The notes: generated from the sequence alone by a model not told the origin. A stretch of 64,000 bases of DNA from an uncultured Acidimicrobiaceae bacterium (GCA_947258985.1 CAMYKI010000003.1:24222-88221); one strand, 5' to 3'; shown: positions 10,534-56,700, counted from the stretch's first letter. A program made the numbers and translations.

Positions 10534-11010
10534 GTGGCAGGTCTGGAGCCGAGAGGTTTCAAGTGGGTTATCGCGGGGCGATTGGCCATCTCCGAGAGGA
10601 TCGGGGGCTATGGATTCCAGCACCGCCGGGTGCGCCGCGAGGAGGAGATCATCTGGCTCACCGAACAGGGAGTCAACACGATCTTGTCGCTCATGCCGGG
10701 AAACCAGAATCAGGCCGCATACGAAGGCGCAACTCTCCGCTTCTTCCATTTCCCGATCGAGGATGATTTGGATCCCGAGGATGTCGACAAGATCTTTGGT
10801 GTCCTCGATGACGCTCTCGGCGAATCGGGATCGTCGGTCCTGGTACATCGGGAGTTGATCGGCGATCTGCTCGTCGGCCTCATGGGAGGCTACCTGGTCC
10901 ACTCCGGGCTAGTCAAAGACCCCATCGTTGCCACCTCGGTGATCCAGGAGATCTCCGGTCGGCCGCTCGGCCCCGAGGGGCGGCGGTTCATCCCGACTGT
11001 GACCGGCTGA
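10534..11010 (+). CDS. hypothetical protein occupying the usual folB position (weak phosphatase-like pattern, no catalytic Cys)
   Basis: ORF lies between folP and folK but has no similarity to dihydroneopterin aldolase by eye. The pattern W.TEQGV.TILSL...HFPI.D...VLVHRELIGD loosely resembles a dual-specificity-phosphatase fold without the CX5R cysteine. GTG start at 10534. Confidence 0.4.
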   Translation: MAGLEPRGFKWVIAGRLAISERIGGYGFQHRRVRREEEIIWLTEQGVNTILSLMPGNQNQAAYEGATLRFFHFPIEDDLDPEDVDKIFGVLDDALGESGSSVLVHRELIGDLLVGLMGGYLVHSGLVKDPIVATSVIQEISGRPLGPEGRRFIPTVTG

Positions 11011-37474: not shown

Positions 37475-38206
37475 GTGACGAACAAGAAGACCACAGCGAA
37501 GACCGCCACGAAGAAGGCACCGGCCAAAAAGGCACCGGCCAAGAAGGCTGCGGCCAAAAAGGCTCCGGCCAAGAAGGCTGCGGCCAAAAAGACTGCGGCG
37601 GCGAAGAAGGCTCCGGCCAAGAAGGCTCCGGCCAAAAAGACTGCGGCGGCGAAGAAGGCTCCGGCAGCCAAGGCTGCACCCCGCCGAGCCAAAAAGGTGC
37701 AGAGCCCGTTTTCGGTTGGCGACTACGTCGTCTATCCGCATCACGGAGCCGCAACAATTATCAAGCGCGAGCGGATCGACTTCGACGGCGAGCGGCAAGA
37801 GTATTTCGTACTCGAGATTGCCACCGATCAGCTCACTGTGCGGGTCCCGGTCGGCAAGGCCGTTGATCTCGGCGTACGTCCGGTGATTTCGCAAAACAAG
37901 GCCCGGCAGGTGTTCCGAACGTTCAAAGAAGAGCCTCAGGAAGCCGGCAAGAACTGGAGCCGCTGGTACAAGCTCCTCACCGAGAAGATCAACAGTGGCG
38001 ACATCTTCCAGGTAGCCGAAGTGGTTCGCGACCTCACCTATGCGCAGCAGGTGAAGGGGATCTCACCGGCGCTGAAGAGGATGTTGGCCAAGGCTCGGCT
38101 AATCATCATCTCAGAACTCCGTTTCGCGCTTAACCTGGACGAAGAGGAAGCGGTGAAGAGACTCGATAGGGCTCTTCCCAAAGTCGAAATGCCGGAGGAA
38201 GTGTGA
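37475..38206 (+). CDS. carD: CarD/CdnL family RNA-polymerase-binding regulator with N-terminal Lys/Ala-rich histone-H1-like extension
   Basis: The C-terminal roughly 160 aa are a CarD_CdnL_TRCF domain ([27 protein letters not shown]...). The N-terminal about 80 aa are [10 protein letters not shown] repeats. GTG start. Confidence 0.8.
37500..37690. repeat. tandem 15/45-bp repeats encoding the (P/A)AKKA motif inside carD
   Basis: Repeated gccaagaaggctccggccaaaaag(g/a)ctgcggc units are visible in the DNA. Likely to vary in length. Confidence 0.6.
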
Positions 38207-39376: not shown

Positions 39377-39985
39377 ATGTCAGATCAGAAGCAGCGCTTA
39401 GAGGCACGGGCCATGCGGCTCGAGTACACAACGATTGCGTGGAACGCCGTCGAGATGATCATCTCGATCGGCCTTGGTATTGCCGCTCGATCGCTGGCAT
39501 TGGTGGCTTTTGGCCTCGATACCATGATCGAGTTGTTCGCTTCGGGAGTCGTCGTTTGGCATCTGCGCCACCCGGGTCGTGACAGCGACCACGTAACGGC
39601 CAGGGCTCTGCGACTGGTTGCGGTGGCATTTGCGGTGCTTGCCGTGGTTGTCGGCACCGGAGCCATCTGGGCTCTTGCCACCAGCTCCGCCCCGGACGAG
39701 TCCCCCTGGGGCATCGCATATCTGGCCGTCACGGTGGCGGTGATGCTCTCCCTTGGCCTGGCCAAGAGGGCGACCGGCAAGAAACTCGACAGTGAGCCTC
39801 TCACTGCAGAGGCGCGCATGTCGGTCCTCGATGCTGCCCTTGCGCTGGGTGTGTTGATTGGCCTGGGTGCGAATGTGTTGTTCGGATGGTGGTGGGCCGA
39901 TCCAGTGGCAGCACTGCTTGTTGCCGTTGCTGCGCTCAACGAAGCTCGAGAGAACCTGGAGGAGGCTCGAGAACTGGCGGAGTGA
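39377..39985 (+). CDS. cation-diffusion-facilitator-like membrane protein (TM domain only, no cytoplasmic C-terminal domain)
   Basis: About 5-6 predicted TM helices with the pattern IAWNAVEMIISIGLG...ALVAFGLDTMIE reminiscent of the CDF TMD. Only 202 aa. Confidence 0.45.
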   Translation: MSDQKQRLEARAMRLEYTTIAWNAVEMIISIGLGIAARSLALVAFGLDTMIELFASGVVVWHLRHPGRDSDHVTARALRLVAVAFAVLAVVVGTGAIWALATSSAPDESPWGIAYLAVTVAVMLSLGLAKRATGKKLDSEPLTAEARMSVLDAALALGVLIGLGANVLFGWWWADPVAALLVAVAALNEARENLEEARELAE

Positions 39986-40080
39986 CCGTACGGCTTCACC
40001 GGCTAGCGCGCGGATATTCCCCGCTAAACCTATCGCGCTCAACTGTCGATTTAGGATCTGATCGCCATCGAGGAGTCCGC

Positions 40081-41469
40081 ATGCGTTCCAAGATCCTTCG
40101 TACATTGACCGTCGGCCTGGCCATGTCTCTAGTCATGGGGGTAGCCCTGGCTGCGCTTCCACCGGGAGGGACCTTTACCGACGACAACGGCAACGTCCAT
40201 GAAGGCAACATCGAGGCAATCGCCGCTGAAGGCATCACCCGGGGCTGCAACCCACCCGTCAACGACAACTATTGCCCGTCGACCTCGGTCACTCGCGGTC
40301 AGATGGCCGCTTTTCTCACCAGGGCCCTCGGCCTTTCGACGCCCACCGCAGACTTCTTCACCGACGACGACGGCACGACCTTCGAAGCGGACATCAATGC
40401 CGTGGCCGCCGCCGGTATCACCAGGGGCTGCAATCCACCCGACAACGACGAGTTCTGCCCGAGCCAGGCAGTAACCCGGGAGCAGATGGCGGCTTTCTTG
40501 CGCCGTGCGTTCAACTATCCGGCCACCGCCACCGACTACTTCACCGACGATGGCCTCTCCGTGTTTCAGACAGACATCAACGCCATTGCCGCCGCCGGCA
40601 TCACGATGGGATGCAACCCGCCTGCCAATGACAGTTACTGTCCGACTGCCGTCGTGAAGCGCGATCAGATGGCGTCGTTCTTCGCGCGGGCGCTGGACCT
40701 CGAGCCGATTACGCCACCAACGCCGACCACCATCGCCCCCGGCGACAGCATCATCATCGATCACACCACAGCCGACATCGATGCCATTCCGCAGACGTGG
40801 CTCAACGCCGCTGCAGCCAACGTGATCTGGGCATACGGGTCGACGTCTCACGGGACTCAACTGTGGGCCGGTGCCGAGGATCTCGACAACTGGCTTTCCT
40901 TGCCCTTCGAGAAGCAATACCGGACCGTACCGACCCAGACGAGCCCTGCGCAGCTGCGCATGGGTTACGACAGCGGCTGGTCCTGGAGTGCATCGGTCTA
41001 TCTCTCCCGGGCCCGGTCAATCCTGGCCGACGTGCCCCAAGCGACCGCCTTCTCCTGGTCGTGGTGCGGTGAGATGTCCTCGGCCGGCACCGATGTCGAT
41101 GCATACCTGAGCGCAATGACGACGCTGGAGGCCGAATACCCGAACGTGACATTCGTTTACATGACAGGCCATCTCGACGGCGGGGGAGCGGCCCTGGAGG
41201 CAAACAACGACAAGGTACGTCAGCACGTGCTCGACAACGGCGGGGTGCTATTCGACTTCGCCGACATCGAGCAGTACGACCCCAACGGCGTCGAGTACCC
41301 GACCGCCTCGGATGCCTGCGAGTGGTGCAGCACGTGGTGCGCAGCTCATCCAGGCGACTGTGCGGATCTTGGTGGAAGCTGTGCCCACAGCCACCCCTTC
41401 AACTGCCGTCGCAAGGGGATGGCGTTCTGGTGGTTGTCGGCCCGTCTCGCCGGCTGGTCCGGGAGTTAG
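40081..41469 (+). CDS. secreted protein with three tandem SLH-like repeats (each with a conserved Cys pair) and an uncharacterised Cys-rich C-terminal domain
   Basis: Signal peptide MRSKILRTLTVGLAMSLVMGVALAA. Three repeats of about 52 aa, pattern F(T/F)DD.G..HE..I.A.AA.GIT.GCNPP.ND.(Y/F)CP...VTR.QMAAFL.RA(L/F). A roughly 270-aa C-terminal domain ends CEWCSTWCAAHPGDCADLGGSCAHSHPFNC. The real ATG is at 40081. The ORF track's upstream extension is rejected. Confidence 0.55.
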   Translation: MRSKILRTLTVGLAMSLVMGVALAALPPGGTFTDDNGNVHEGNIEAIAAEGITRGCNPPVNDNYCPSTSVTRGQMAAFLTRALGLSTPTADFFTDDDGTTFEADINAVAAAGITRGCNPPDNDEFCPSQAVTREQMAAFLRRAFNYPATATDYFTDDGLSVFQTDINAIAAAGITMGCNPPANDSYCPTAVVKRDQMASFFARALDLEPITPPTPTTIAPGDSIIIDHTTADIDAIPQTWLNAAAANVIWAYGSTSHGTQLWAGAEDLDNWLSLPFEKQYRTVPTQTSPAQLRMGYDSGWSWSASVYLSRARSILADVPQATAFSWSWCGEMSSAGTDVDAYLSAMTTLEAEYPNVTFVYMTGHLDGGGAALEANNDKVRQHVLDNGGVLFDFADIEQYDPNGVEYPTASDACEWCSTWCAAHPGDCADLGGSCAHSHPFNCRRKGMAFWWLSARLAGWSGS

Positions 41470-42352: not shown

Positions 42353-43756
42353 ATGCGCATCTTCAACACCCTCGGACGGACATTGCAGGACTTCGAACCG
42401 CGTGATGCGGGCAAGGTCTCGATGTACGTCTGTGGGGCCACCGTCCAGTCGAAACCGCACGTCGGCCACGGCCGGTATGCCGTGGTGTTCGACGTTGTCC
42501 GCCGCTACTTCGAATGGCTCGGCTACGAGGTCACCTATGTGCGCAACATCACCGACGTCGACGACAAGATCATCAATGCAGCAAACGAGATGGGCATCTC
42601 CACCAACGAGGTAGTCGAGTTGGCCGACTCGGCCTTCCGTTCGGCCTATGAGGCCCTGCGGGTGGCTCCGCCGGACATCGAGCCGCGAGCGACCGAGCAC
42701 ATCTCCGAGATGATCGCAATGATCGAGGCTCTGATCGAAAGGGACCACGCCTACGAGGCGGACGGCGACGTCTACTTCGTCGTTCGCAGCTTTCCTCAGT
42801 ACGGCAGGCTGTCGGGCCGAAACATCGACGAACTTCGAAGCGGCGAACGCATCGAACCCGGCGAGCACAAGCGGGATCCGCTCGACTTCGCCGTCTGGAA
42901 GGCTGCCAAGCCGGGGGAGCCGAGTTGGCCATCCCCGTGGGGGCCCGGTCGTCCGGGCTGGCACATCGAGTGTTCGGCAATGGCACAGAAGTACCTGGGG
43001 GATGGCTTCGATATCCACGGCGGTGGCAACGATCTGGTCTTCCCCCACCACGAGAACGAGATCGCCCAAGCTGAGGCCGCCGGTCACGTCCCCTTCGTCA
43101 ACTATTGGATGCACAACGGTTTGCTCAACCTGTCCGGCGAGAAGATGTCCAAGTCGACCGGCCACGTCGTGGACCTCGTCGAGGGCATCGACAAGTACAC
43201 GCCGGGCGCCGTCAGGCTGTTCTACTTGCGAACCCACTACCGCAAACCGCTCGAGTTCAGCGAGGAGTCCCTCGTCGATGCCCGGGCGTCGCTCGACAGG
43301 ATGTGGGCGTTCCGGCGCCGTGTCTCGGGACCGGTGGAAGACGCACCTCTTGCGGCAGCGATTGAGGCATTCCAGGGAGCGATGAACAATGACCTCGACA
43401 ACGCGGGGGCGCTTGCCGTGTTGTTCGACGTCATCAGAGATGGGAATCGGCGGCTCGACGCCGGCGAGGAAGCCGGACCCTGGATTGCTGCCTACGACGA
43501 GATCATCGGAGTGCTCGGATTGGCCGAGCCGGGGGCAGCGCTTGATGACGTTGCCGACAACGTGGCCGCGCTCGCTGCAGAGCTGGGAGCCACAGATGTG
43601 GCCGGGGAAGATGCGATCGATGCTCTGATCGAGTTGCGTGCCGCCGCTCGTGCAGACAAGGAATGGGCCAAAGCAGACCAGATCCGCGACGGGCTGGCCG
43701 AACTCGGCATCGTCCTGGAGGACACGCCCCATGGCGTCCGCTGGCATCGGGGATAG
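42353..43756 (+). CDS. cysS: cysteine--tRNA ligase
   Basis: HIGH motif (PHVGHGR) and KMSKS motif. Class I catalytic core. Confidence 0.9.
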
Positions 43757-44507
43757 CCTCGAAGGCTTCCACGCGGTCCGGGCGGCGGTCGACGCGGGAC
43801 GCGTTACCGAAATCCTGGTTGAGCATTCGCGAGCGAAGCGGGACGACTACCGCGCTTTGCTCGAGGATGCGGCCGGGCGGGGAGCGCGGATCGACCGGGT
43901 CGACGATGTACGCGATCATGCGCGGTCGGGAGCACCGCAAGGCATCGTCGCCAAAGCGCGTCCCATTCCCTACTCGTCTCTCGATGCCGCCATCGCAGTC
44001 ACTGATCCCGCTGCGCTGCTCGTACTCGATCACCTCGAGGACCCGAGGAATGTGGGAGCTATCGCCCGGTCGATGGTGGCTGCCGGGGTTAAGGCGCTCG
44101 TGATTCCGGAGCGCCGATCTGCCCCGCTCGGACCGACCGCCTTCAAGGCAGCGGTCGGCGCTTTCGAGAAGCTGACGGTGGTACAGACGAAGTCCACCGC
44201 GGATGCGATGCGCCGGTTGCGCAAGGCGGGGGTATGGCTGGTCGGTCTCGATGCCGGCGGGAATCGTTCGCTGTTTGGTTGTGATCTGTTGGACCAACCC
44301 GTCGCCATCGTCGTTGGGGCAGAGGGCAAAGGACTATCACATCTGGCGTCGGAACTGCTCGACGTGACGGTCACGATCCCGATTGACCCGGAAGTCGAAA
44401 GCCTCAACGCATCGGTGGCGGCGTCCCTGGCATTGTTCGAAATCAGCCGCCAACGTGGCGCTACACTCGGCGCGCCTCTGCCCGACGGCAGAGACCCGCT
44501 GGCGTAG
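43731..44507 (+). CDS. rlmB: 23S rRNA (guanosine-2'-O)-methyltransferase, RlmB/TrmH (SpoU) family
   Basis: SpoU_sub_bind N-domain plus SPOUT motifs (LVLDHLEDPRNVGAIARS, IVVGAEGKGLS, IPIDPEVESLNASVAASLALFE). Start overlaps the cysS 3' end. Confidence 0.8.
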   Translation: MASAGIGDSLEGFHAVRAAVDAGRVTEILVEHSRAKRDDYRALLEDAAGRGARIDRVDDVRDHARSGAPQGIVAKARPIPYSSLDAAIAVTDPAALLVLDHLEDPRNVGAIARSMVAAGVKALVIPERRSAPLGPTAFKAAVGAFEKLTVVQTKSTADAMRRLRKAGVWLVGLDAGGNRSLFGCDLLDQPVAIVVGAEGKGLSHLASELLDVTVTIPIDPEVESLNASVAASLALFEISRQRGATLGAPLPDGRDPLA

Positions 44508-44574
44508 CTCAGTCCGGCAGAGCAGCTGATTTGTAATCAGCAGGTCATGGGTTCGAATCCCTTCGCCAGCTCCA
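44498..44574 (+). tRNA. tRNA-Thr (anticodon TGT)
   Basis: Acceptor GCTGGCG/CGCCAGC. D arm GCTC...GAGC. Anticodon stem GCTGA/TCAGC with loop TTTGTAA. T loop TTCGAAT. Discriminator T, then CCA. The 5' end overlaps the rlmB stop by 10 nt. Confidence 0.8.
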
Positions 44575-44601
44575 CTCACATCGTGGGTGTATCCGTTCGT
44601 C

Positions 44602-44817
44602 TTCTCTGCCGATGAGACGATGGACATCGGCCAGGACACCGCCTCGCCGGTTGTCGACGACTACGGCTAGGGGCCGGACAACGTGTTCACCGGCAGGATC
44701 CATTGGGTGCAGATCGACGTCGAGGATGACGACGTCAGCCACACCGAGGATCCCGAACGGACATACCAACGCATCATGGCGCGGCAACCCATCAGCGGGC
44801 TGCGGGCAAGCGCGGAC
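44602..44817 (+). pseudogene. remnant of the C-terminal about 70 codons of an arylsulfatase-family gene, interrupted by an in-frame TAG
   Basis: Same-frame translation FSADETMDIGQDTASPVVDDYG*GPDNVFTGRIHWVQIDVEDDDVSHTEDPERTYQRIMARQ. From memory this fits the conserved C-terminus of actinobacterial sulfatases (...GxDxGSPVxDDY...FTGxIxxVxIDV...). It has no start, begins directly after the tRNA, and carries an internal stop at 44668-44670. Confidence 0.4.
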
Positions 44818-44862
44818 CCGCCGCGTTGACCTGAGGGAGCTCGCCGCATCGCGCTAGTCGGT

Positions 44863-45264
44863 TTACGGTGCGAAGGAATCCTGTGCCGGGCTGGGCCGGT
44901 CGGGTTGCCACGGCCACCTTTCTTCCACATCGAGCACCAATGTCCAGCTCAAGAAGGTGCGGATGAGCACCAGGAGACCCAGTACGACGGCGTTCTCGAT
45001 GGTGGCTTCGAAGGTCACCGTCTTGATGATGTCTGCCGCGATGAGCAGATCGAGTCCGACCAGAAGCCCGCGAGCCATGTAGCGCTTGAACGTTTCGAAG
45101 GCGTCGTCCCATGTGCTCTGGAACCGACGCGAGGTGCCGCCCACCAGCGAAGCCACTACCGCAATCGAGATGATAACAATCGCGACCAACTCGATCCCTT
45201 CGGCAAATCGACGGGCGATCTCGAAGTCACCGATCGTGAGGCCCTCTTCAACAGCTAGCAGCAT
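44863..45264 (-). CDS. DUF1622 family membrane protein
   Basis: 133 aa with three TM segments. Sequence pattern typical of the small DUF1622 membrane proteins. Confidence 0.45.
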   Translation of the reverse strand: MLLAVEEGLTIGDFEIARRFAEGIELVAIVIISIAVVASLVGGTSRRFQSTWDDAFETFKRYMARGLLVGLDLLIAADIIKTVTFEATIENAVVLGLLVLIRTFLSWTLVLDVEERWPWQPDRPSPAQDSFAP

Positions 45265-45394
45265 CTTTCCGGCCTACGCCGACCCCAGCGCGAGCAACGG
45301 CATTGTCGTCCGATCTCGGGCTACGACCGGGCGGTGTTTGGAACCGCACACACCGCAGCCCCTCGGCGGCCGAGTGGACCGGCGCAGCGGACCG

Positions 45395-46660
45395 TTATGC
45401 CTCGCTAGCGGTGAGCCGCTCGGGCTCCGGAGGGTTCTCCGCCGGAGATGGCAGGGTTGGCCGATCCGGAAATGGGTCGCGGTCGATGAGCTTGGCGTAC
45501 AGATAGCTGAAGATGTCTCGCAGAGTGGCGATGATCGGTACGGCAAGCAGCGAACCGAGGAGGCCACCGATGGCAAACCCGGCGATCAAGCCGAGCATGA
45601 TCACGGCAGGGGGCAGCCGTACCGCGGTACCCATCACCCGCGGAGCGATCAGGTTGGCCTGGAGCTGGACGACGACCAGGTAGATGATCGCTACCAGCAC
45701 GGCGAACGCCAGGTTCGACATCTCAAACCGGGTGGTCCCGTTGACGAGGGCCGCGAGCACCCCCGGTATCGCGGCAAGGATCGGTCCGAATGTTGGAACC
45801 ATGTTCAACACTGCCATCACGACACCCATCACGAATGCGCCCGGCATGCCGACCATCCACAGGACGAGCCAGACCATCGTGCCGGTGATAGCGGAGTTGA
45901 CGAGCTGGCCGTATAGGTAGCCCTTCCACACCGTGGTCAGCTTCTTTGACATAAAGAGGGCGTCCCCCTCATACCCTGGTGGGACGGTTCGAAGGATGGC
46001 GGCGTGATACTTGGCCGAGTCAGCGTTGAGGTACATCGCCACAATTAGCGTCACCAACCCGGACATGACGATCGCAACCACGACCCCGACCGCGGCCCTC
46101 AAGGTGGCGAGTGCGCCTCCGACCAGGGCCATGATCTGATCTGTGGTGACCTGGACCCCTGACGACTCCTCGATCTCCTCGGTATCCAGGTTCTCCTGCA
46201 ATGAGTCGACCAGTTCGCTGAGATCCAGGTCCACGCCGAGGAACGTCACCCGGCGAAGGTCCTCGGCGTTCTCTCTTGCCCATTCCGCAATAGCCACGAT
46301 CGCTCCGACCGGGTCGAGTTGCCGGATCGATTCGATGATCGCCCCCGCCATCAACACCCCGAAAACCAGCGTGCCTACCAGCACCAGGAAATAGGCGATC
46401 AGGAGGGCCAACCCCCGTGGCGCCTTGAGGCGGACGTGGATGATGCGGATCAGAGGAGCGATCAGGAAAGCCACGAACCCGGCGAGGGCAGCCGTCACGA
46501 ACACCGCCCGGGCCATGTAGGCAATAAGCAGCAACGACACGCCGATTCCGGCAGCCACGGTCAACTTGGCGGCGTTGCTCCACGGTGGCGACGGTTCTGC
46601 CTCGGCCTCGAGGATCTCTCGGGACGTTGGCGGAGCCTTAGGTTCTTGGGTGGCGGCCAT
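45395..46660 (-). CDS. AI-2E family transporter (UPF0118/PerM-like)
   Basis: 8 TM topology, conserved C-terminal region G..LGL.G.LLAVP. ATG at 46660 chosen as start. Confidence 0.7.
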   Translation of the reverse strand: MAATQEPKAPPTSREILEAEAEPSPPWSNAAKLTVAAGIGVSLLLIAYMARAVFVTAALAGFVAFLIAPLIRIIHVRLKAPRGLALLIAYFLVLVGTLVFGVLMAGAIIESIRQLDPVGAIVAIAEWARENAEDLRRVTFLGVDLDLSELVDSLQENLDTEEIEESSGVQVTTDQIMALVGGALATLRAAVGVVVAIVMSGLVTLIVAMYLNADSAKYHAAILRTVPPGYEGDALFMSKKLTTVWKGYLYGQLVNSAITGTMVWLVLWMVGMPGAFVMGVVMAVLNMVPTFGPILAAIPGVLAALVNGTTRFEMSNLAFAVLVAIIYLVVVQLQANLIAPRVMGTAVRLPPAVIMLGLIAGFAIGGLLGSLLAVPIIATLRDIFSYLYAKLIDRDPFPDRPTLPSPAENPPEPERLTASEA

Positions 46661-46807
46661 GTTTGGCGAGTGTAAGGACCAACACGCCAACCCCACGGGA
46701 TTGTCGGCGCCGGGCCAAGCAGCAAGTCACGAGTGTGCGAGTAGCGAGGTTGGGAAAGGGTGGGGCCTTCCCGACTAGGAGGTGTCGGGAGGATCCGGGC
46801 CATCCGC

Positions 46808-47956
46808 TCAAACCCGCTGTCGGCGGCCAGCACGGTCGAGTCGCTTCGCAAAGCTATCGAGGCGATCATGCAATCGATCAGCCCGCCGGGAGTGAAGCCT
46901 GCGGACCGACACGGTGACTTCTGTGTTGGGGTCCCCAGCGATGCGCCATCCGTCCTCATGGACCAGCCGGTGGTGGAACGGGCACAGGGAGATCAGGTTG
47001 TCGAGATCTGTGGGACCACCGTGCGCCCAGTGGATGAGATGGTGGAAGTGGACCCATCGGGTGTGGCCGCAGCCCGGGTAGCGACACCCTTGATCGCGCT
47101 TGCGCAGAAGCCGGGCCAGCCATGGAGGGATGGTCCGAGTTGTGCGGCCGACGCCGAGGATGCTGTGTTCGCCGTCCTCGACACTGACCTGGAGACGAGC
47201 GTCGCAGACCAATCGGCGGGCCGTTTCCGCAAGCAATGGCGTGCCATCCTCGTAGGACGCTTCGCCTTCGTCGTCGGTAAGCACCGAGAGCGGTATGTGA
47301 ACGACGGCAGTGGCCCGATCTGGGTCACGATCGGCGCCCCGATGCTGCGATGCCAGCATGAGCAGTGCATCGAGGCAGCGGGCCTCGAACGATTCGTAGG
47401 TTCCTCCCGGCTGGGCTGGGGCTTGCGAGGCGAGCCGGGTGATCGTCTTTACGAATTCGACACCGTCGCTTGCGACCATCTTGCCGTTGAGCCATAAGAC
47501 CGGGCGGTTCTCATCGAATGACCAGCTGAACTCGCGTGTGCGCTGCACCTGCTGCACATCGTCGAGCGTGGCCTCGCGGGCTCGCTTGGCGAGGGCAGTG
47601 ACGCTCAATGAGGGTGCCTCGGCGGCAAGGTCATCGTCGGTGTCCGGGGTCGCGAACCTGGTGACATTGCGAAGCTGATCCCACGACATTCTCCCCGCCG
47701 CATACGCCGCCCTAATCGCCGGCAACTGCCGAATCTCGCGGGCAATCCGCACCCAATCATTGGCGGTACGTCGGGACAAGCGGTAGCGGGCAACGAGCCA
47801 ACCGGCCATCGATGAGGCGCCGTCGAATGTCCACGCCTCCTCACGGTCCATCCTGGCAACGTCATCAAGCAACTCCAGATGTGCAGCGCACCTGATCGTG
47901 TGCCACCTGTCCATTGCGGTGTATCGATCTGTGTCATGCAGGGGGGCGGTCCCCAT
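46808..47956 (-). CDS. DUF222 domain / HNH endonuclease protein (REP13E12-type)
   Basis: DUF222 core, then an HNH motif (CRYPGCGHTRWVHFHHLIHWAHGGPTDLDNLISLCPFHHRLVHEDGW). Start set to the ATG at 47956 to avoid overlap with the divergent gene at 48100. Confidence 0.75.
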   Translation of the reverse strand: MGTAPLHDTDRYTAMDRWHTIRCAAHLELLDDVARMDREEAWTFDGASSMAGWLVARYRLSRRTANDWVRIAREIRQLPAIRAAYAAGRMSWDQLRNVTRFATPDTDDDLAAEAPSLSVTALAKRAREATLDDVQQVQRTREFSWSFDENRPVLWLNGKMVASDGVEFVKTITRLASQAPAQPGGTYESFEARCLDALLMLASQHRGADRDPDRATAVVHIPLSVLTDDEGEASYEDGTPLLAETARRLVCDARLQVSVEDGEHSILGVGRTTRTIPPWLARLLRKRDQGCRYPGCGHTRWVHFHHLIHWAHGGPTDLDNLISLCPFHHRLVHEDGWRIAGDPNTEVTVSVRRLHSRRADRLHDRLDSFAKRLDRAGRRQRV

Positions 47957-48099
47957 GGCGGTCTCCGGGTGATTGCGTCGGTGGGGAAGTATCAACAACG
48001 TATCAACTGGGTGTGACACATTTGCCTCGGGCGGACACGGCGGGTCATGAGCTTCGCAACTCGGCGGCCGTGTCTTCCCGCTAGATTTGCTGATGAGCA

Positions 48100-48918
48100 A
48101 TGGATACTGACGCTACCTCCATCGACGACAGAGGCGCCGAGCCGCATCTCGCCGTGTTCTTCGACCTCGACCGGACGATCATCGAGGGGTCGTCGATATC
48201 CCAGTTCGGAATGGCGGCATGGCGAGCGGGCCTGATCGATCCGAAAAAGATGGGCATGCATTTGATCCGAGGGTTGCTTTTTGACTGGATCGGCGAATCA
48301 GAAGGCGTTGCCGATGAGACCCTCCCCAAGATCCTAAAGACGATAAAGGGCAAGAAGCAGTCCGAGATGATGGAGCTACGGGGCCCGCTTGTGGAACGGA
48401 TGTTCGCTGAGGCAAGACCGGAGACTCTGCGACTACTGGGGCTTCACGCCAAAATGGGACGGGATTGCTATGTCGTTTCGGCCTCGGCCATCGAGATAGT
48501 CGGCGAGCTGGCGGAGAGGCTCGGCTTCGCCGGGGCGATCGCGACCGAGGCTGAGGTCATCGATGGTGTGTACACCGGGCGGCTGGTGCAGCCGTTCCGG
48601 CACGGCGAGGAAAAGGCGCGCGCCATCGCCAGGCTGGCCGAGGAGAAGGACTACGACCTCAGTCTCTCATTCGCATATGGAGACTCATTCCACGATCTCC
48701 CGATGCTGGAACTGGTTGGGATACCCATCGCCGTCAATCCCGACGCCAAGCTCGCCGACGTTGCGTATGAGCGTGGCTGGCCGGTTGTACAGTTTGCGAA
48801 GCCGCATCACGTGATGCTCCGCCGCCTGAAGACGGGAGCTGCGCTTGGTGCTGCCTTTGCGGCGGGTGCCGTGAGCATGAGGATGTTGCGGAGGGGCGCC
48901 GGTCGCTACACCTCGTGA
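48100..48918 (+). CDS. HAD superfamily hydrolase, subfamily IB (phosphoserine-phosphatase-like)
   Basis: DxD motif FFDLDRTIIEGSS, the SASAIEIV motif II region, and the K...GDSFHDLPML motif III/IV. Confidence 0.7.
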   Translation: MDTDATSIDDRGAEPHLAVFFDLDRTIIEGSSISQFGMAAWRAGLIDPKKMGMHLIRGLLFDWIGESEGVADETLPKILKTIKGKKQSEMMELRGPLVERMFAEARPETLRLLGLHAKMGRDCYVVSASAIEIVGELAERLGFAGAIATEAEVIDGVYTGRLVQPFRHGEEKARAIARLAEEKDYDLSLSFAYGDSFHDLPMLELVGIPIAVNPDAKLADVAYERGWPVVQFAKPHHVMLRRLKTGAALGAAFAAGAVSMRMLRRGAGRYTS

Positions 48919-48934
48919 CCCGTTGCCCGAGTCG

Positions 48935-50140
48935 CTAGAGCGCTCCGACAGCGAGCGCCTGGTCCAGATCGGCGATCAGGTCTGCGACATCCTCGATTCC
49001 GACGGAATACCTAATCAGGCTCTCGGGGATGCCCATCGCCGCCCTCTCTTGTGCAGTCATTTCGACGTGACTTGTGGTGGCGGGAGGACCCGCGACGGTC
49101 TCGACCGCACCGAGGTTCGCCGCCAGGTGTGCCAACTGGAGCCGGGGCAGCACCGTCTTGACCGCATCCAGTCCACCCCGGATCGAGAAGGACAGCACCC
49201 CGCCGAATCCCGTCATCTGACGAGCGGCAACGTCGTGATGCGGATGCGATTTCAGTCCGGGGTAGAACACCGCCTCGATCGCGGGGTGTGTCTCCAGGTG
49301 TTTGGCGATCGCGAGGGCGTTTGAGTTCTGGCGTTCCACCCTCAGGTGGAGTGTTTTAACCGAGCGTTGCAGCAGGTACGCCGCAAACGGTCCCAGCGTT
49401 GCGCCGTTGATCTCGCGGTAGTGATAGATGCGCTCGATGAGGTCGGCATTCCCGCAGACGATGCCGCCCAGTGCATCGGCGTGACCACCGAGGAACTTGG
49501 TCGCCGAGTGCACAACGAGATCCGCTCCGAGGGCAAGGGGCCGCTGGTTGATCGGTGTGGCAAATGTGTTGTCGACCACCACGGTGGCGCCAACCGCGTG
49601 CCCGGCGGCGGCGAGCCGCTCCAAGTCGAGGATCTTCAGTGTTGGATTGGTCGGTGTCTCGAGATAAAGGACCTTGCAGCCCTCTGCCACTGCTGCCTCG
49701 ATGGCTTCGTGGTCATCGGTGGATATCAGTTCCACGATGACGCCGTCGCGGGGGAGGAACTCGAGAAACAACTTCGTGGTGCCGCCGTAGGTGTCGGTCA
49801 CGGACACAACCCGATCACCCGGGGCGAGCAGCGTCCGCAACGTGCCGGAGATGGCGGCCATCCCCGTGGCAAACGCAGTGGCGGCCTCGGCTCGCTCCAG
49901 GGCGGCGATGCGGCGCTCGAAGACATCCACAGTCGGGTTGGTGTTGCGGCTGTAGATGTGGCCCTCTTCCTTTCCGAGGGCAACCGCCATCCACTCGTCC
50001 ACATCCTGATAGCCAAAGCTGACTGTCTGCGCTATCGGGACCTGTGTCGACCGCTCCCAGAAGGGGTGTTCCTCACCGGCCCAAACCGACTTCGTCCCGT
50101 CACCGTGTGCCACCGGAGTCCTTCCTTTCGACGTTGCCAC
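48935..50140 (-). CDS. PLP-dependent Cys/Met metabolism enzyme (cystathionine gamma-synthase / O-acylhomoserine sulfhydrylase family)
   Basis: Pyridoxal-lysine motif SATKFLGGH. About 400 aa with the overall pattern of the MetB/MetC/MetZ fold. Confidence 0.75.
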   Translation of the reverse strand: MATSKGRTPVAHGDGTKSVWAGEEHPFWERSTQVPIAQTVSFGYQDVDEWMAVALGKEEGHIYSRNTNPTVDVFERRIAALERAEAATAFATGMAAISGTLRTLLAPGDRVVSVTDTYGGTTKLFLEFLPRDGVIVELISTDDHEAIEAAVAEGCKVLYLETPTNPTLKILDLERLAAAGHAVGATVVVDNTFATPINQRPLALGADLVVHSATKFLGGHADALGGIVCGNADLIERIYHYREINGATLGPFAAYLLQRSVKTLHLRVERQNSNALAIAKHLETHPAIEAVFYPGLKSHPHHDVAARQMTGFGGVLSFSIRGGLDAVKTVLPRLQLAHLAANLGAVETVAGPPATTSHVEMTAQERAAMGIPESLIRYSVGIEDVADLIADLDQALAVGAL

Positions 50141-50168
50141 CGTACTCGACGGTACTCTTGCCGAGCAG

Positions 50169-51419
50169 ATGAACCCCTCGATTAGTCACGAGAAGATCAC
50201 CCAGCGCGCCCTGGACCTCATCGCCACGCCGTCGGTCACCGGTGACGAGCAGGCGGCGATCGATCTGGTGGCGAGTTGGCTGGAGCCGATCGCCGACGAG
50301 GTTGATCAATGGGTTACCCCGATGGCGGAACTGGAGCGTGACCCGGCGTACCCGGGGCGTGAGGTGGAGCGGGACATCGTTCCGGTTGTTGCCGCCCGGA
50401 TCGTCGGGAACCGTCCCGGCCCCACTCTTGTACTCACCGGCCACGTCGATGTAGTGCCGATCGGAGACCGGGGGCTCTGGACACGCGATCCCAGCGGCGA
50501 GGTCGATGGTGACGTGCTGTACGGGCGCGGGGCAGCCGACATGAAAGCCGGTCTCGTCGCGGCAGTCGAAGCGTTCAGCGTGCTCGCCGCGGAGCGCAGC
50601 TTTGCGGGTGAGGTCCGCTTCGTGGCGGTGCCCGGCGAGGAGGACGGCGGTACCGGCACGCTGGCCGCCATCCGGCGCGGCTGGACGGGCGACATGGTGA
50701 TCCTCACCGAGCCGACGGCCGACAGCGAGGGTCTGCGCATCGTGGTCGCTCACGGCGGCGCACTCACCTTCTCGATCGACGTATCGGGCCGCGCTGCCCA
50801 TGGTGCAACCCGGCTGCTCGGCGAATCGGCCCTCGACCACTTCTGGAAGGTGCACCGGGCGCTGCGTGATCAAGAGGCGGAACTCAACGCGGCCGAGACC
50901 GATCCGATCATGACTGCGCTTGGCTTGCCGTACCCGACGACGATTGGGATCGTGCACGGTGGCGAGTGGGCGTCCAATGTCATGGAACGACTGACCGCCG
51001 AGATCCGGGTCGGGGTCACCATTCACGAAACCATCGCTGAGGCGGAGGCGCGGTTCGAGCGAACGCTGCGTGCCGCGCTCGCCGGCGACCCGTGGCTCGA
51101 CGAACACCCCACAAAGATCACTCGCGCCGGGGCGGCGTTCGGATCGTCTCGAATTGATTTGCGGCATCCGCTGGTGGCTTCAGTCCGGGAGGCTGCAGCC
51201 ACCGTGGTCGGGGGGACACCCCCGACCGTCGGTGCGCCCTACGGATGCGATATGGCGCTGTGGGTGAGAGAGGCCGGAGCCGCCACCCTCGTGTTCGGGC
51301 CCGGCGATGTCGGCCACGCCCATGCCGTCGATGAGCACGTGAGCCTGCAGCAGGTAGCGGACGTCGCTGAGGTATTGGTGGCGACTGCGAGGCGCTTGCT
51401 GGGCGGTTCCGCGGCATAG
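50169..51419 (+). CDS. M20 family metallopeptidase (ArgE/DapE/succinyl-diaminopimelate desuccinylase-like)
   Basis: Metal-binding motifs LTGHVDVVP, GRGAADMKAG and the GEEDGGTG region. Confidence 0.7.
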   Translation: MNPSISHEKITQRALDLIATPSVTGDEQAAIDLVASWLEPIADEVDQWVTPMAELERDPAYPGREVERDIVPVVAARIVGNRPGPTLVLTGHVDVVPIGDRGLWTRDPSGEVDGDVLYGRGAADMKAGLVAAVEAFSVLAAERSFAGEVRFVAVPGEEDGGTGTLAAIRRGWTGDMVILTEPTADSEGLRIVVAHGGALTFSIDVSGRAAHGATRLLGESALDHFWKVHRALRDQEAELNAAETDPIMTALGLPYPTTIGIVHGGEWASNVMERLTAEIRVGVTIHETIAEAEARFERTLRAALAGDPWLDEHPTKITRAGAAFGSSRIDLRHPLVASVREAAATVVGGTPPTVGAPYGCDMALWVREAGAATLVFGPGDVGHAHAVDEHVSLQQVADVAEVLVATARRLLGGSAA

Positions 51420-51579
51420 CGTCGCGCCGGTAGGTGTCCTCTGGCCTGCCAGTCGTTCGTTAACGGGCTACCCACACACCCGTGCCGACCACCGGCCTCC
51501 GGACGCCCAAAGAGCTGAAACCGAGAACCACATTTCGGGCCGTTCCGTATTGGGGGGCACAGAGACGGAGGAGATAGAG

Positions 51580-51973
51580 GTGCGACGCATAGGGATCATG
51601 GTTGCGGTCTTCGCATTGCTGGTAGCCGCCTGCGGCACGAGCGACGCAGACGAGACAACCGCCACAAGTCAAGAGGCAGCGATAACCACGACCCAGGCGC
51701 CGGAGACCACTGCCGCGCCTGCCACAACTACGACAGAGGCCGTGGCTGCGGTGGCCGCCGCCGTCGCGCTATTTGTGGCTCTTCGAACACCTTCGCCCGA
51801 TTGGGTGGTTGCCATGCCCGGTACCGACCTGGCTCCCGTGGCGACATCGACGGTGGAGGGTTGGAACACTGATACCGGTACCCGCATGCTGCTGACGGTC
51901 GATGGGTCACACTCGAGCGCCTCGACGAGGACGAGAGTCCCTCGGGCGAAACGGTGCTTGACACGGGCGCGTA
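51580..51973 (+). pseudogene. possible lipoprotein gene with a frameshift (boundaries uncertain)
   Basis: The GTG at 51580 is preceded by GGAGGAG and encodes VRRIGIMVAVFALLVAACG (lipobox), then a Thr/Ala-rich linker. Downstream coding-like sequence continues in the +1 frame (..RWVTLERLDEDESPSGETVLDTGA*). In the original frame the ORF runs, through implausible Arg-rich sequence, into the DUF2892 gene. Confidence 0.3.
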
Positions 51974-52059
51974 GGCGACTCGTCGCCCCGTTTGTATCCA
52001 AATCCGAGGCTTGTTCGTCTTTATCACGTAAGTACAAGCACTCTGAGAAGGAGTCATCC

Positions 52060-52275
52060 ATGTCATTCATGAACGAAGCAAGCTGGGACCGGATCGCCCG
52101 TGTGGTTCTCGGTGTCGTCCTCATCTTCCTCGGGTTCTCGGGAACCGTCGAGGGTGGATTCGGAACTTTCCTCGGAATCCTTGGGTTCGTGCCCCTCGTC
52201 ACCGGATTGGCTGGTTGGTGCCCGCTCTATGCGATCTTCAAGTTCCGTACCAACCGCGAAACCGCTGAGATCTAG
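52060..52275 (+). CDS. DUF2892 (YgaP-like) small inner-membrane protein
   Basis: A GAAGGAG Shine-Dalgarno lies 7 nt upstream of the ATG. 71 aa with two TM helices and the conserved GW.PL motif (LAGWCPLYAIF). Confidence 0.65.
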   Translation: MSFMNEASWDRIARVVLGVVLIFLGFSGTVEGGFGTFLGILGFVPLVTGLAGWCPLYAIFKFRTNRETAEI

Positions 52276-52284
52276 GGTCCGGCG

Positions 52285-52740
52285 ATGTCGCATCTTGCCG
52301 ACTACACCCGGCCAACGCTGATCGAGATCATGGCTCCGCACTGTGTCGAGTGTCGGGCGATGCAGCCCGACCTCGACGCAGCGGCCGAGCAGCACGCAGA
52401 ATCGGTAGATCTGGTGGTGCTCGACGCAACCAAGGAGATGGACCGGGTAGCTTCGCTGCAGGTACTCGGCACACCTACGCTGATCGCCGTGAATGATGGT
52501 GTCGAGATTGCTCGGTTCGTCGGGCGGAGGTCGCGTTCGGAGCTCTCCGAGCTCTTTGTTGCGGTCGCCGCCGGAGCGGCGGATACCGTCCCGGCTTCCG
52601 GCCGGGGGGATCGGACGGTTTGGGCGATCGGCGGGGTATTGCTCGCCGCTGCCGGGCTACTCAGCGGACCGTCCTGGATTCTCGTCGCACTCGGGGCCGG
52701 TCTTGCCGGGTTTGCGGTGCTGCGGTCGGTGGCGGGCTGA
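52285..52740 (+). CDS. thioredoxin-like protein with C-terminal membrane anchor
   Basis: CxxC active site (APHCVECRAM) in a thioredoxin-fold-like N-domain. A Gly/Ala-rich TM segment sits at the C-terminus. Confidence 0.6.
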   Translation: MSHLADYTRPTLIEIMAPHCVECRAMQPDLDAAAEQHAESVDLVVLDATKEMDRVASLQVLGTPTLIAVNDGVEIARFVGRRSRSELSELFVAVAAGAADTVPASGRGDRTVWAIGGVLLAAAGLLSGPSWILVALGAGLAGFAVLRSVAG

Positions 52741-53480
52741 TGTTCAACACCGCGGATCTAGGTGATCATCTCGATGATCTCTACCGTTTTGCTCTGGCAA
52801 TTACCCGCAACCCCGACCAGGCGGGCGACCTCGTCCATGACACGGTCGTACGGGCTATTGAGCGACGGGATCAGTATCGCGACGACGGGTCCCTCGGAGC
52901 CTGGCTGCGACGCATTCTCCACAACCTCGCGATCGATCGGGCGCGCCGCTCCTCACGTGAGGTCGTCGTGGAGGAAGTCGAGGAGAAGTGGCAAGCCGAC
53001 GAGTACACAGTCGATCCGGCGATTGTTGCCGAGCGCGCCCAGACCAGAGAAGAGTTGGAGGACGCTCTGGTTCGTCTCCCCTTCGCCTACAGAACCGCGG
53101 TCGTTCTCCACGACGTCGAGGAATGGAAGGTGCGCGAGATAGCTGAGGTGCAAGGGATCTCATTGCCCGCGGCAAAGCAGCGCTTGCGGCGAGGCCGCAT
53201 GATGCTGGTAGCCGCGCTCGCCGAGGGCCACGAACGGCGCATGATGCTCAAGGAGGTACCGATGCGGTGCTGGGACGCTCGAAAACATGTATCCGACTAT
53301 CTCGACGGCGCGCTCGCACAAGACACTGCGTTCATGGTGGAGAGCCACCTCGAAGCTTGTCCCACCTGCCCCCCGCTGTATGCCGCACTTGTCGACGCCC
53401 ATAGTGGTCTGGTGGCTCACCGCGACCCCGACTCGGTGATTCCCCCCGATGTGCGCACAAGAATCCTGGCGCTTCGCTGA
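52740..53480 (+). CDS. ECF sigma factor fused in frame to a C-terminal ZAS anti-sigma domain
   Basis: Sigma region 2 (DLVHDTVVRAIER...WLRRILHNLAIDR) and region 4 (TAVVLHDVEEWKVREIAEVQGISLPAAKQRLRRGR) are followed, without a stop, by MRCWDARKH...HLEACPTCPP (C-x26-H-x3-C-x2-C). AAGGAGG plus an ATG at 53262 sit exactly at the start of the ZAS part. The ATG at 52740 overlaps the upstream stop. Confidence 0.7.
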   Translation: MFNTADLGDHLDDLYRFALAITRNPDQAGDLVHDTVVRAIERRDQYRDDGSLGAWLRRILHNLAIDRARRSSREVVVEEVEEKWQADEYTVDPAIVAERAQTREELEDALVRLPFAYRTAVVLHDVEEWKVREIAEVQGISLPAAKQRLRRGRMMLVAALAEGHERRMMLKEVPMRCWDARKHVSDYLDGALAQDTAFMVESHLEACPTCPPLYAALVDAHSGLVAHRDPDSVIPPDVRTRILALR

Positions 53481-53651
53481 GGCGCTCGGGTTCCCTCCGC
53501 AACCGGGTCAGGCGCCATGAATTCAGCCGAGCGTCGTCTTCCCTGTTGCGGTGGCGGCAACGCCGAAAGGCCGGGAGCAACCTCCCCGGCGGGCGTCACG
53601 GATGTGCCAGATCTCCGCAAGAATGTGTGGGCAAGGAGACAGGGAGGCATT

Positions 53652-54554: not shown

Positions 54555-54566
54555 ACCCCTTTCGGT

Positions 54567-54608
54567 CTGGCGTACGTGAGCGCTGTATACAGCGCTCACG
54601 TACGCCAG
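54567..54608. terminator. perfect 42-bp palindrome (21-bp arms) between convergent genes
   Basis: CTGGCGTACGTGAGCGCTGTA|TACAGCGCTCACGTACGCCAG. The reverse complement of the first arm equals the second arm exactly. Confidence 0.6.
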
Positions 54609-54613
54609 ACGCG

Positions 54614-55186: not shown

Positions 55187-55435
55187 ATGTTGGCGCAGCG
55201 AGACATCAAGGTCCTCGAGTTCGAGAGTGCGTGGTGGCACTATCCCGAGCCGAAGGACCGCGCCATCCGCGAATACCTGGGCATGAGCGCTACCCGCTAC
55301 TACCAGGCGTTGCGCCGACTCATCGACGACGAGACGGCCGCTTGCGAATACCCGCTTGTGATCCGCAGGTTGCGGCGAATGCGCACCGAGCGGCGAGAAG
55401 CATTGGCGCGTCGGCTCGATTCCACGGTCGGCTGA
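55187..55435 (+). CDS. DUF3263 domain protein
   Basis: 82 aa with the conserved LEFE..WW......K...IRE..GMSATRYYQ.L..LID motif typical of DUF3263. Confidence 0.6.
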   Translation: MLAQRDIKVLEFESAWWHYPEPKDRAIREYLGMSATRYYQALRRLIDDETAACEYPLVIRRLRRMRTERREALARRLDSTVG

Positions 55436-56700
55436 TGGCGGAGACCACCCCGGCCGCTCCTGTCGAAGAAGCCCAGGAGTCCGAACCGCAACGGGACCTG
55501 AGCGCGCTGATATCGCGGATCGGGATTGCGGCATGGAGCATCGTCGGTGTCGCAGTTCTCGTCTGGGTGATCCTCCAGGTTCTTGTGCGCATCGACGTGT
55601 TGCTCGCCCCTGTCGTGTTTGCGGTAGCAACCATCTATGTGCTCAACCCGGTGGTCAACTGGTTTTCGGCTCGCCATATCCCTCGAGTGATAGCGGCGTT
55701 TCTTGCGTTCATGTTGCTGCTCGGCGTGCTGGTGCTCTTCGGGTTTGCCGTTGCTCCGGCGGTGACGTCGCAGGCTTCCGAACTGGCCAGCAGGTTCCCG
55801 GAGATCTACGCAGATTCCACCGCCGAGATAGAAGACCTGGTCGCCAACCTAGGGTTCGAGGGTGTTGATCTGTGGTCCTATGAACGTTTCCAGGAGTTCC
55901 TGCGTGATCCGGATGCTCAAGACCAGATTCTCTCAGTGGTTTGGGATCGTCTCGGCGAAGTGACAACCGGTTTGCTTGAAGCGTTCCTGGTGTTCTTCCT
56001 CGCCCCCGTTGTTGCTTTCTATATCCTCATCGATCTTCCCCGCGTCCGCCGCGAGGCTATCGGACTAATTCCGAGGCGACACCAGGATGAGGTACTCCAC
56101 GTTTCGCGTCGGTTGGGCGGTGCGATTGGCGGTTTTATACGGGGCCAGGTGGCGGTTGCCGTGATCGTCGGCATCATGACCAGTGTCGGGTTCCGCATAA
56201 TCGGGCTCGAGTTCTGGCTGATCATCGGGATGATCGCCGGATTCCTCAACATCATTCCGTTCGTCGGTCCGTGGGTCGGAGGTTTCCTCGGTGTGTTGGT
56301 CGGTTTCGTCACCGCCGACGTGTCGACGGCCTTGTGGGCGGGAGTTGTGGCGCTCGTAGTGCAGCAGTTGGACAACCACCTGATCAGCCCAAATGTGTTG
56401 CGGGCTACGGTGAGCCTGCACCCTGCCGTCATCATTCTGGTGCTGGTGCTCGGTGGCGGCATCGGTGGGATCTGGGGTGTTCTCCTCGCCGTCCCGGTCA
56501 CTGCCATCCTCAAGATCCTCATCGGTCATCTGTGGCGAACACGGGTACTCGGCCAGTCGTGGGAAGATGCTCTGGAGGCAATGATCGAGTCATCTCAACC
56601 ACCGGAAACACTGTATGAGGCGATCCGCGAGTCGCTCGACGACGAGCACGCCGCTAACGAGGCCGAGGTCGATGCCGACGGTGGCATCACCGACGAATAG
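55434..56700 (+). CDS. AI-2E family transporter (second copy)
   Basis: Multi-TM protein with the same family pattern as the gene at 45395-46660. The ATG overlaps the DUF3263 stop (ATGA). Confidence 0.7.

Follow-up and report, generated by a model that had tools for sequence, protein, structure and literature searches.

A probable arylsulfatase gene relic at the tRNA-Thr(TGT) edge of a variable segment in an uncultured Acidimicrobiaceae bacterium

How does the tail of an arylsulfatase gene come to lie against the 3′ end of a tRNA gene? The question is raised by a 64,000-nt stretch of DNA from an uncultured Acidimicrobiaceae bacterium (GCA_947258985.1, CAMYKI010000003.1:24222-88221), hereafter the window, in whose coordinates positions are given unless another contig is named. 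Here a stub of about 200 bases lies directly 3′ of the tRNA-Thr(TGT) gene. An original prediction, made from the sequence alone, had read the pair as a decayed sulfatase fragment and a junction scar at a tRNA attachment site. Our analysis indicates that the stub is most likely a non-functional relic of the 3′ terminus of a sulfatase gene, which forms the tRNA-proximal edge of a hypervariable segment (44575 to ~53.6-55.1 kb) and arose by deletion or replacement.

The frame that opens at 44575 translates as LTSWVYPFVFSADETMDIGQDTASPVVDDYG, a stop, GPDNVFTGRIHWVQIDVEDDDVSHTEDPERTYQRIMARQPISGLRASADPPR and a second stop, just as it had been quoted. A search of the protein collection with the stub returned 19 proteins (E = 1e-25 to 1e-17, 63-77% identity), in each case at a C-terminus that finishes in ...ARQ; several bear the name arylsulfatase in their source (Joint Genome Institute, JGI). 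An exhaustive HMMER search gave 563 matches at E <= 1e-3. In the homologue P0032, one uninterrupted open reading frame (ORF) runs from the PF00884 Sulfatase match to ...ARQ, and in the contig L002 the C-terminal piece follows a 582-aa PF00884 ORF from which it is split only by frameshifts. These matches, with a tail that is contiguous with PF00884 in P0032, confirm that the fragment derives from an arylsulfatase C-terminus. The reconstructed L002 protein (764 aa) has the CSPTR formylglycine motif, and its catalytic domain (residues 22-537) matches the P. aeruginosa arylsulfatase 1HDH (E = 3e-60). When this protein was used as a tblastn query, only 44593-44787 matched in the 64-kb window (71% identity, E = 4e-22); no upstream body and no other piece of the sulfatase gene was found there, as had been predicted. 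Since the stub corresponds to residues 700-764 only, it contains no catalytic residue.

Among known families, the stub most closely resembles the formylglycine-dependent (type I) arylsulfatases with a long C-terminal extension, to whose extreme C-terminus (...FSADETMDIG...WVQIDLEDDDVSH...ARQ) it is 60-79% identical, the figure being about 71-79% for many sulfatase C-termini. The family-specific tail ending in ...ARQ is present, but the PF00884 domain with its C-x-P-x-R motif (CSPTR) is absent, there is no complete ORF with a start codon, and the native stop has been lost; the stub is thus a fragment of a member and not itself a member. Searches of Pfam, NCBIfam and PDB with the stub gave no meaningful match, and the silence of Pfam and NCBIfam is explained by models that do not cover the tail of the family. 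P0032 also gives a weak Laminin_G_3 match at residues 247-389. AlphaFold2, run on the homologous C-terminal domain (P0003 with 20 sequences), produced an unusable model: the mean predicted local distance difference test score (pLDDT) was 46.8, falling to ~30 at the residues equivalent to the stub.

Rearranged pieces of the same family occur in other contigs. In L003 (9564-10249; also in L004 and L005), sulfatase residues 22-166 are fused directly to residues 675-764, and in L087 (1034-1444) and L088 (1709-2119) only residues 635-764 are left, between a GGACT gene and an MDMPI_N gene; this free-standing C-terminal ORF is 103 aa long and belongs to a cluster with 8 members. P0021, a 153-aa metagenome representative, matches the stub most closely (79%); its patchwork ORF joins a thiamine-enzyme-like N-terminus, a SufC-like segment and a sulfatase tail, and is an assembly chimera or else one more rearrangement scar. 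A free-standing family of small proteins, considered on account of the many short homologues, was rejected: most of these are fragments at contig ends, with matches that stop at the C-terminus of the protein, and the three short sulfatase-tail ORFs inspected on longer contigs all prove to be sulfatases with a truncation, a frameshift or an internal deletion.

To call the stub decayed, as the original prediction did, overstates its condition. Aligned with 16 homologues it keeps all 19 invariant positions, it has no frameshift, and its G+C content at third and second codon positions (GC3 0.85, GC2 0.37) has the signature of coding sequence. The predicted in-frame TAG is indeed present, as the single stop within the homologous part, and is a G-to-T change. 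It is absent from L001, a 1246-bp Logan contig of run ERR11443729 that was assembled separately, has the same order of tRNA, stub and DUF1622 gene, and differs from the window at about 5 of its 1246 bases; an exact look-up of the DUF1622 gene returns this contig alone. There the codon is GAG, which leaves an open 80-codon frame that was called as a gene. Five homologues have Glu at this position, and together with the GAG of L001 they identify TAG as the derived state. Because L001 is nearly identical to the window, all that follows from the difference is that the nonsense mutation is very recent; a conserved small ORF is not thereby indicated. The original prediction had set the same arrangement with an intact small ORF in related genomes against its own reading; L001 formally is such a case, but one that stands only about five substitutions away.

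Both edges of the stub depart from the family. On the left, the near-invariant Thr-Val that precedes Pro-Phe is replaced, so that clear homology begins at the CCG codon at 44593, and the 18 nt between the tRNA gene and this codon (CTCACATCGTGGGTGTAT) hold the breakpoint somewhere. Compared with five sulfatase homologues, this spacer gave one weak match only (L086, 8 of 9 nt; 63/2000 shuffles), which is not significant. On the right, all 16 aligned homologues end at ARQ, and in the five homologue loci compared as DNA a TAG or TAA follows directly on the Gln codon in every case; the window and L001 have CCC in its place.

The tRNA gene that borders the stub is a fixed landmark. ARAGORN and Rfam agree with the predicted tRNA-Thr(TGT) at 44498 (RF00005, 69.4 bits against a gathering score of 29), the gene is 100% identical to that of the related locus L007 across 78 nt, and it was the sole family match in an Rfam scan of 43.5-56 kb. 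The stop codon (TAG) of the preceding rlmB-type gene lies 10 nt inside the tRNA gene, in the acceptor/D-arm region, and this overlapping or abutting arrangement recurs in L006-L013 and is usual in the ~40 loci of the class that have the pair; so tight an overlap indicates that the tRNA is probably co-transcribed with cysS-rlmB. Relatives were gathered by scanning one genome per species with the adjacent RlmB protein, which yielded 80 RlmB loci and places the window among uncultured Acidimicrobiia, the nearest relatives being 74-77% identical in RlmB. Across about 40 Acidimicrobiia loci tRNA-Thr(TGT) follows rlmB, and the pair is a fixed chromosomal anchor in this class.

What follows the anchor is not fixed. 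Upstream of the tRNA, 33.9-44.57 kb of the window is colinear with L007, L008, L009, L011 and L013, and blastn similarity to all seven close relatives ends at 44572-44576, that is, at the tRNA 3′ end. It resumes at 48954 in L009 only, at 53642 in L012 (an alpha/beta hydrolase) and at ~55140 in L007 and L008 (GNAT and AI-2E transporter genes). The conserved AI-2E transporter lies directly 3′ of the tRNA in the more distant L016, L018 and L020, 2.8-6 kb away in L012, L007 and L008, and 10.6 kb away in the window. The gene found 3′ of the tRNA likewise changes from locus to locus: an integrase in L006 and L013, an integrase relic and then an MMPL-family gene in L007, a metallophosphoesterase in L008, an unknown ORF in L009, a CBS-domain protein in L011 and an NMO-like protein in L012. 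The tRNA is therefore the left edge of a 9-10.6 kb segment with lineage-specific content.

The relatives also reveal what kind of site this is. In L006 and L013 a PF00589 tyrosine integrase on the minus strand ends ~35 nt past the tRNA, and in L024 a PF00589 integrase lies 248 nt from tRNA-Thr. Directly 3′ of the tRNA, a hairpin (GGGAATCCCC...GGGGATTCC) is present in L006, L007, L008, L009 and L013, and it sits between the tRNA and the integrase in L006 and L013. In L007 (4682-4760) only the last integrase codons (...VIGLGAQ and the stop) remain after the hairpin, and L008 (10824-10900) has a possible similar stub (...IVGGCAP and the stop), which indicates that truncation of island genes is recurrent here. 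The integrases of L006 and L013 are 73% identical, as are the RlmB proteins of the two loci; this equality fits vertical inheritance and suggests, from sequence comparison, that the integrase is an old occupant of the site. In L083 a perfect 25-nt direct repeat of the tRNA-Thr 3′ end (GGGTTCGAATCCCTCCGCCAGCTC...; 10802-10826 and 10958-10982) occurs with its copies 132 nt apart, and looks like an attachment-type footprint with almost nothing between the copies. Thus tRNA-Thr(TGT) is demonstrably an integrase target in the class. In the viral collection, relatives of the L006 integrase are only 23-28% identical and lie at prophage ends, and the 24-mer of the tRNA 3′ end matches only L096 (IMGVR_UViG_3300005529_000001, 369 kb), a jumbo-phage-sized contig with an array of 22 tRNA genes in 9.5 kb that is unrelated to the window.

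The window itself is poorer in such marks. The original prediction had proposed a direct repeat of the tRNA 3′ end as a second attachment site (attR), but none was found in the 64-kb window with the tRNA 3′ 25-mer and 18-mer at up to 3 mismatches, with short-word blastn of the 3′ half plus trailer, or by repeat finding over 44.4-56 kb and the whole window. No integrase or integrase relic was detected in the window by tblastn with the L006 and L013 integrases (E <= 0.01), and no recombinase in Pfam scans of ten ORFs between 44.8 and 54.6 kb plus the GNAT ORF. The trailer hairpin of the relatives is absent from the window, and no terminator was found 3′ of its tRNA-Thr. When a tyrosine integrase inserts an island into a tRNA gene, the gene is regenerated and a displaced fragment of it is left behind (PMC4383910). 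Set beside such islands, as catalogued in Islander, the window shares a junction at the 3′ end of an intact tRNA, at which DNA absent from relatives begins, and hypervariable downstream content; through its relatives it shares PF00589 integrases at the same tRNA, used there as an attachment site, and the 25-nt displaced copy in L083. It differs in having no integrase, no displaced tRNA fragment and no compositional difference. The segment is at most a degraded, immobile island remnant.

We regard deletion or replacement at the tRNA-proximal edge of such an island as the probable origin of the stub. The ancestor of the clade would have carried an integrase-bearing island at tRNA-Thr. In the lineage of the window, a deletion or replacement would then have run from a point 0-18 nt beyond the tRNA 3′ end into a sulfatase gene deeper in the island, and would have removed ~90% of that gene together with the trailer hairpin and the integrase. 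The tRNA would have been spared, as events that damage it are selected against. The event appears recent relative to the decay expected of dead DNA, given that there is no frameshift, that the invariant residues and coding-type GC3 are kept, and that the nonsense mutation is polymorphic between near-identical strains. With bacterial pseudogene relics in general the stub shares the survival of only the last 65 of ~764 codons, the missing start and catalytic domain, a nonsense mutation that is still segregating, and truncated or internally deleted copies of the same family in other contigs (L003-L005, L087/L088); it differs from them in being unusually well kept and in lying no more than 18 nt from a tRNA gene.

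Several observations weigh against this origin. The window holds no proof of a former island, since it has neither attR nor integrase, and no shift in composition or GC3 separates the variable block from the core genes. No sulfatase was found near tRNA-Thr in any of the related loci (tblastn with the L002 protein against the 80 RlmB loci), and in no database contig examined does an intact sulfatase stand beside DUF1622; the contexts of five homologous sulfatase C-termini show no conserved linkage of sulfatase to DUF1622 or to a tRNA, and a metagenome scan with DUF1622 (5 loci, 66-80% identity) gave no such linkage either, neither set of contexts having anything in common with the window. The nearest relatives are only 74-77% identical in RlmB, so that many intermediate steps are invisible. 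The 18-nt spacer can be assigned to neither the tRNA side nor the sulfatase side. Finally, the replacement of the native stop by CCC means that 44787 may be a second breakpoint, beyond what a single deletion explains.

The strongest competitor places the crossover at the tRNA itself, with the junction made by site-specific recombination: either an element that already carried the stub in the flank next to its attP integrated into the tRNA core, or the resident integrase recombined this core with a secondary site in the sulfatase gene, in which case the hairpin, the integrase and the 5′ part of the sulfatase would have been excised as a circle. Divergence from every relative does start exactly at the tRNA end, after GCTC or GCTCCA, the starting point of island DNA for a crossover core formed by the tRNA 3′ end, of which the 25-nt repeat in L083 is an example, and integrases occupy the site in L006, L013 and L024. 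Moreover, the tRNAs of the relatives, otherwise identical, differ in whether CCA is encoded, which suggests repeated exchange just 3′ of the core. In L006 and L013, however, it is the integrase and not cargo that adjoins the tRNA, and an incoming element of that type would put an integrase here; the sulfatase sequence upstream of the retained part is, in the homologues, unlike the tRNA core; and clear sulfatase homology sets in only after the 18-nt spacer. As the window has neither attR nor an integrase, the junction is not assignable to site-specific recombination over plain deletion, and we consider the former unlikely. The junction scar first proposed is right in substance, given the sharp loss of DNA similarity at 44572-44576 and the use of this tRNA by integrases in relatives.

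It is far less probable still that the 80-codon frame is a functional gene. On this account an 80-residue protein, young and expressed, or a 3′ trailer with a function would have arisen from the sulfatase tail and be co-transcribed with rlmB and tRNA-Thr, the window carrying a null allele; if true, the preservation of the stub and the recurrence of free-standing C-terminal ORFs would reflect selection and not recency. In L001, the only other contig with the arrangement, which no diverged genome shares, the frame is open and has been called as a gene; all residues invariant in the family are kept, and free-standing ORFs of this kind do exist (L087/L088; L003-L005). Against this, a mid-frame nonsense codon breaks the frame in the window, and the GTG start has no Shine-Dalgarno-like sequence visible before it. 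The stub is the end of a larger C-terminal domain and is therefore unlikely to fold alone, the homologous region is very poorly modelled by AlphaFold2 (pLDDT ~30), and folding energies across the stub region equal those of shuffled sequences, with no significant RNA structure. Internal deletions or truncations of the same gene, together with contig ends, account for the remaining short ORFs. Least credible of all is a chimeric join at the conserved tRNA, for although the conservation of tRNA genes between strains can lead assemblers astray, and the organism is known from metagenomes only, the identical junction recurs in the separately assembled L001 (ERR11443729), on either side the variable region is bordered by sequence that is syntenic with relatives, in the right order and orientation, and the tRNA, at 77 nt, is shorter than a typical read.

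Table 1. Features at and around the tRNA-Thr(TGT) junction, in window coordinates.
Feature	Position	Strand	Basis or remark
rlmB-type (TrmH-family) rRNA methyltransferase ORF	43731-44507	+	Conserved left anchor; 74-77% identical to RlmB in L006-L012
tRNA-Thr(TGT), intact, CCA encoded	44498-44574	+	ARAGORN; Rfam; left edge of variable region
Spacer, 18 nt, in place of the relatives' trailer hairpin	44575-44592	+	DNA comparison
80-codon ORF, GTG start, broken by TAG in the window	44587-44829	+	Gene call in L001 (P0001)
Probable arylsulfatase relic, last 65 codons (PFVFSADE...RIMARQ), residues 700-764 of a ~764-aa formylglycine-type sulfatase	44593-44787	+	tblastn, homologue matches, alignment
In-frame TAG, derived nonsense mutation	44668-44670	+	GAG (Glu) in L001; Glu here in 5/16 homologues
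13 extra codons and TGA beyond the family's ...ARQ end; native stop is CCC	44788-44829	+	Right edge of clear homology at 44787
Block without counterpart in any relative	44575-48953		Pfam; tblastn/blastn against 80 RlmB loci
DUF1622	44863-45264	-	Pfam
AI-2E transporter paralogue	45395-46696	-	Pfam
DUF222+HNH	46808-48100	-	Pfam
HAD hydrolase	48100-48918	+	Pfam
Cys/Met pyridoxal phosphate (PLP) enzyme (-) and M20 peptidase (+)	48954-51365		blastn, tblastn, Pfam; common to L009 only
Second stretch without counterpart in relatives: YgaP-like membrane protein, thioredoxin, extracytoplasmic function (ECF) sigma/anti-sigma fusion	51366-53641		Pfam; tblastn/blastn
Conserved AI-2E transporter, right anchor	55432-56700	+	tblastn synteny, blastn, Pfam 213 bits

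The segment beyond the stub is a mosaic of material with and without counterparts in the relatives (Table 1). Its first block has no match in the 80 RlmB loci except distant, paralogue-level AI-2E matches: the transporter copy within it, one of two AI-2E paralogues 9 kb apart, is ~30% identical to the conserved copies of the relatives. DUF1622, this transporter and DUF222-HNH all lie on the minus strand, as the original prediction had stated. Genes of the DUF222-HNH type (REP13E12) have been named as repetitive elements in actinobacteria (PMC10589994), and one of them stands 2 kb from the stub; unlike those repeats, however, the gene here is single-copy in the window and has no homologue in the related loci, and no link to the junction was found. 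In the metagenome contig L094 (1-147 and 1614-1886) a DUF1622 homologue lies ~1.4 kb from an integrase fragment that is 48-55% identical over ~50 aa to the tRNA-Thr-associated integrases, a hint that DUF1622 travels as island cargo.

The pair of PLP enzyme and M20 peptidase genes is 75.7% identical to L009 by blastn over 2.4 kb (91% and 77% by tblastn), and in L009 it lies ~1.7 kb 3′ of the tRNA. In the second stretch that lacks counterparts, the ORF 51550-52275 (+) begins with a lipoprotein-type signal (LLVAACG), continues with a Thr/Ala-rich low-complexity stretch and ends with a YgaP-like transmembrane domain that is in frame and covers the last 63 residues only; it may be a fusion or another gene wreck. 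The remaining genes of the segment encode a hydrolase and a GNAT protein. A perfect 23+23 nt palindrome at 54565-54610 (GTCTGGCGTACGTGAGCGCTGTA / TACAGCGCTCACGTACGCCAGAC) fills the gap between the alpha/beta hydrolase gene (end 54554) and the convergent GNAT gene (end 54614), and is probably a bidirectional terminator.

Two features upstream of the tRNA also caught our attention. A 527-aa protein encoded at 39886-41469 (+), which has three FTDD...ITRGCNPP repeats and matches an SLH domain, is without counterpart in the related loci, though it lies within an otherwise colinear block, and looks like a second lineage-specific insertion. At 37475-37669 a 15-nt tandem repeat in ~9 overlapping registers encodes lysine/alanine repeats of the AKKAPAKK type, which make up the N-terminal part of a protein that otherwise shares 92-95% identity with relatives.

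The phenomenon is a textbook one: the junction is an ordinary rearrangement scar and not a new kind of element, and it has little importance beyond annotation, raising no new question or mechanism. In annotation, the fitting label for the stretch is a sulfatase pseudogene fragment and not a gene, and the TAG/GAG difference can serve as a strain marker. For the Acidimicrobiia, the region after rlmB-tRNA-Thr(TGT) is now a documented recombination hot spot in uncultured members of the class, with integrase-bearing, eroded and integrase-free states of the site in different lineages. It illustrates, cleanly and on a small scale, the erosion of tRNA-linked islands to anonymous, 'core-looking' DNA that carries no compositional signal.

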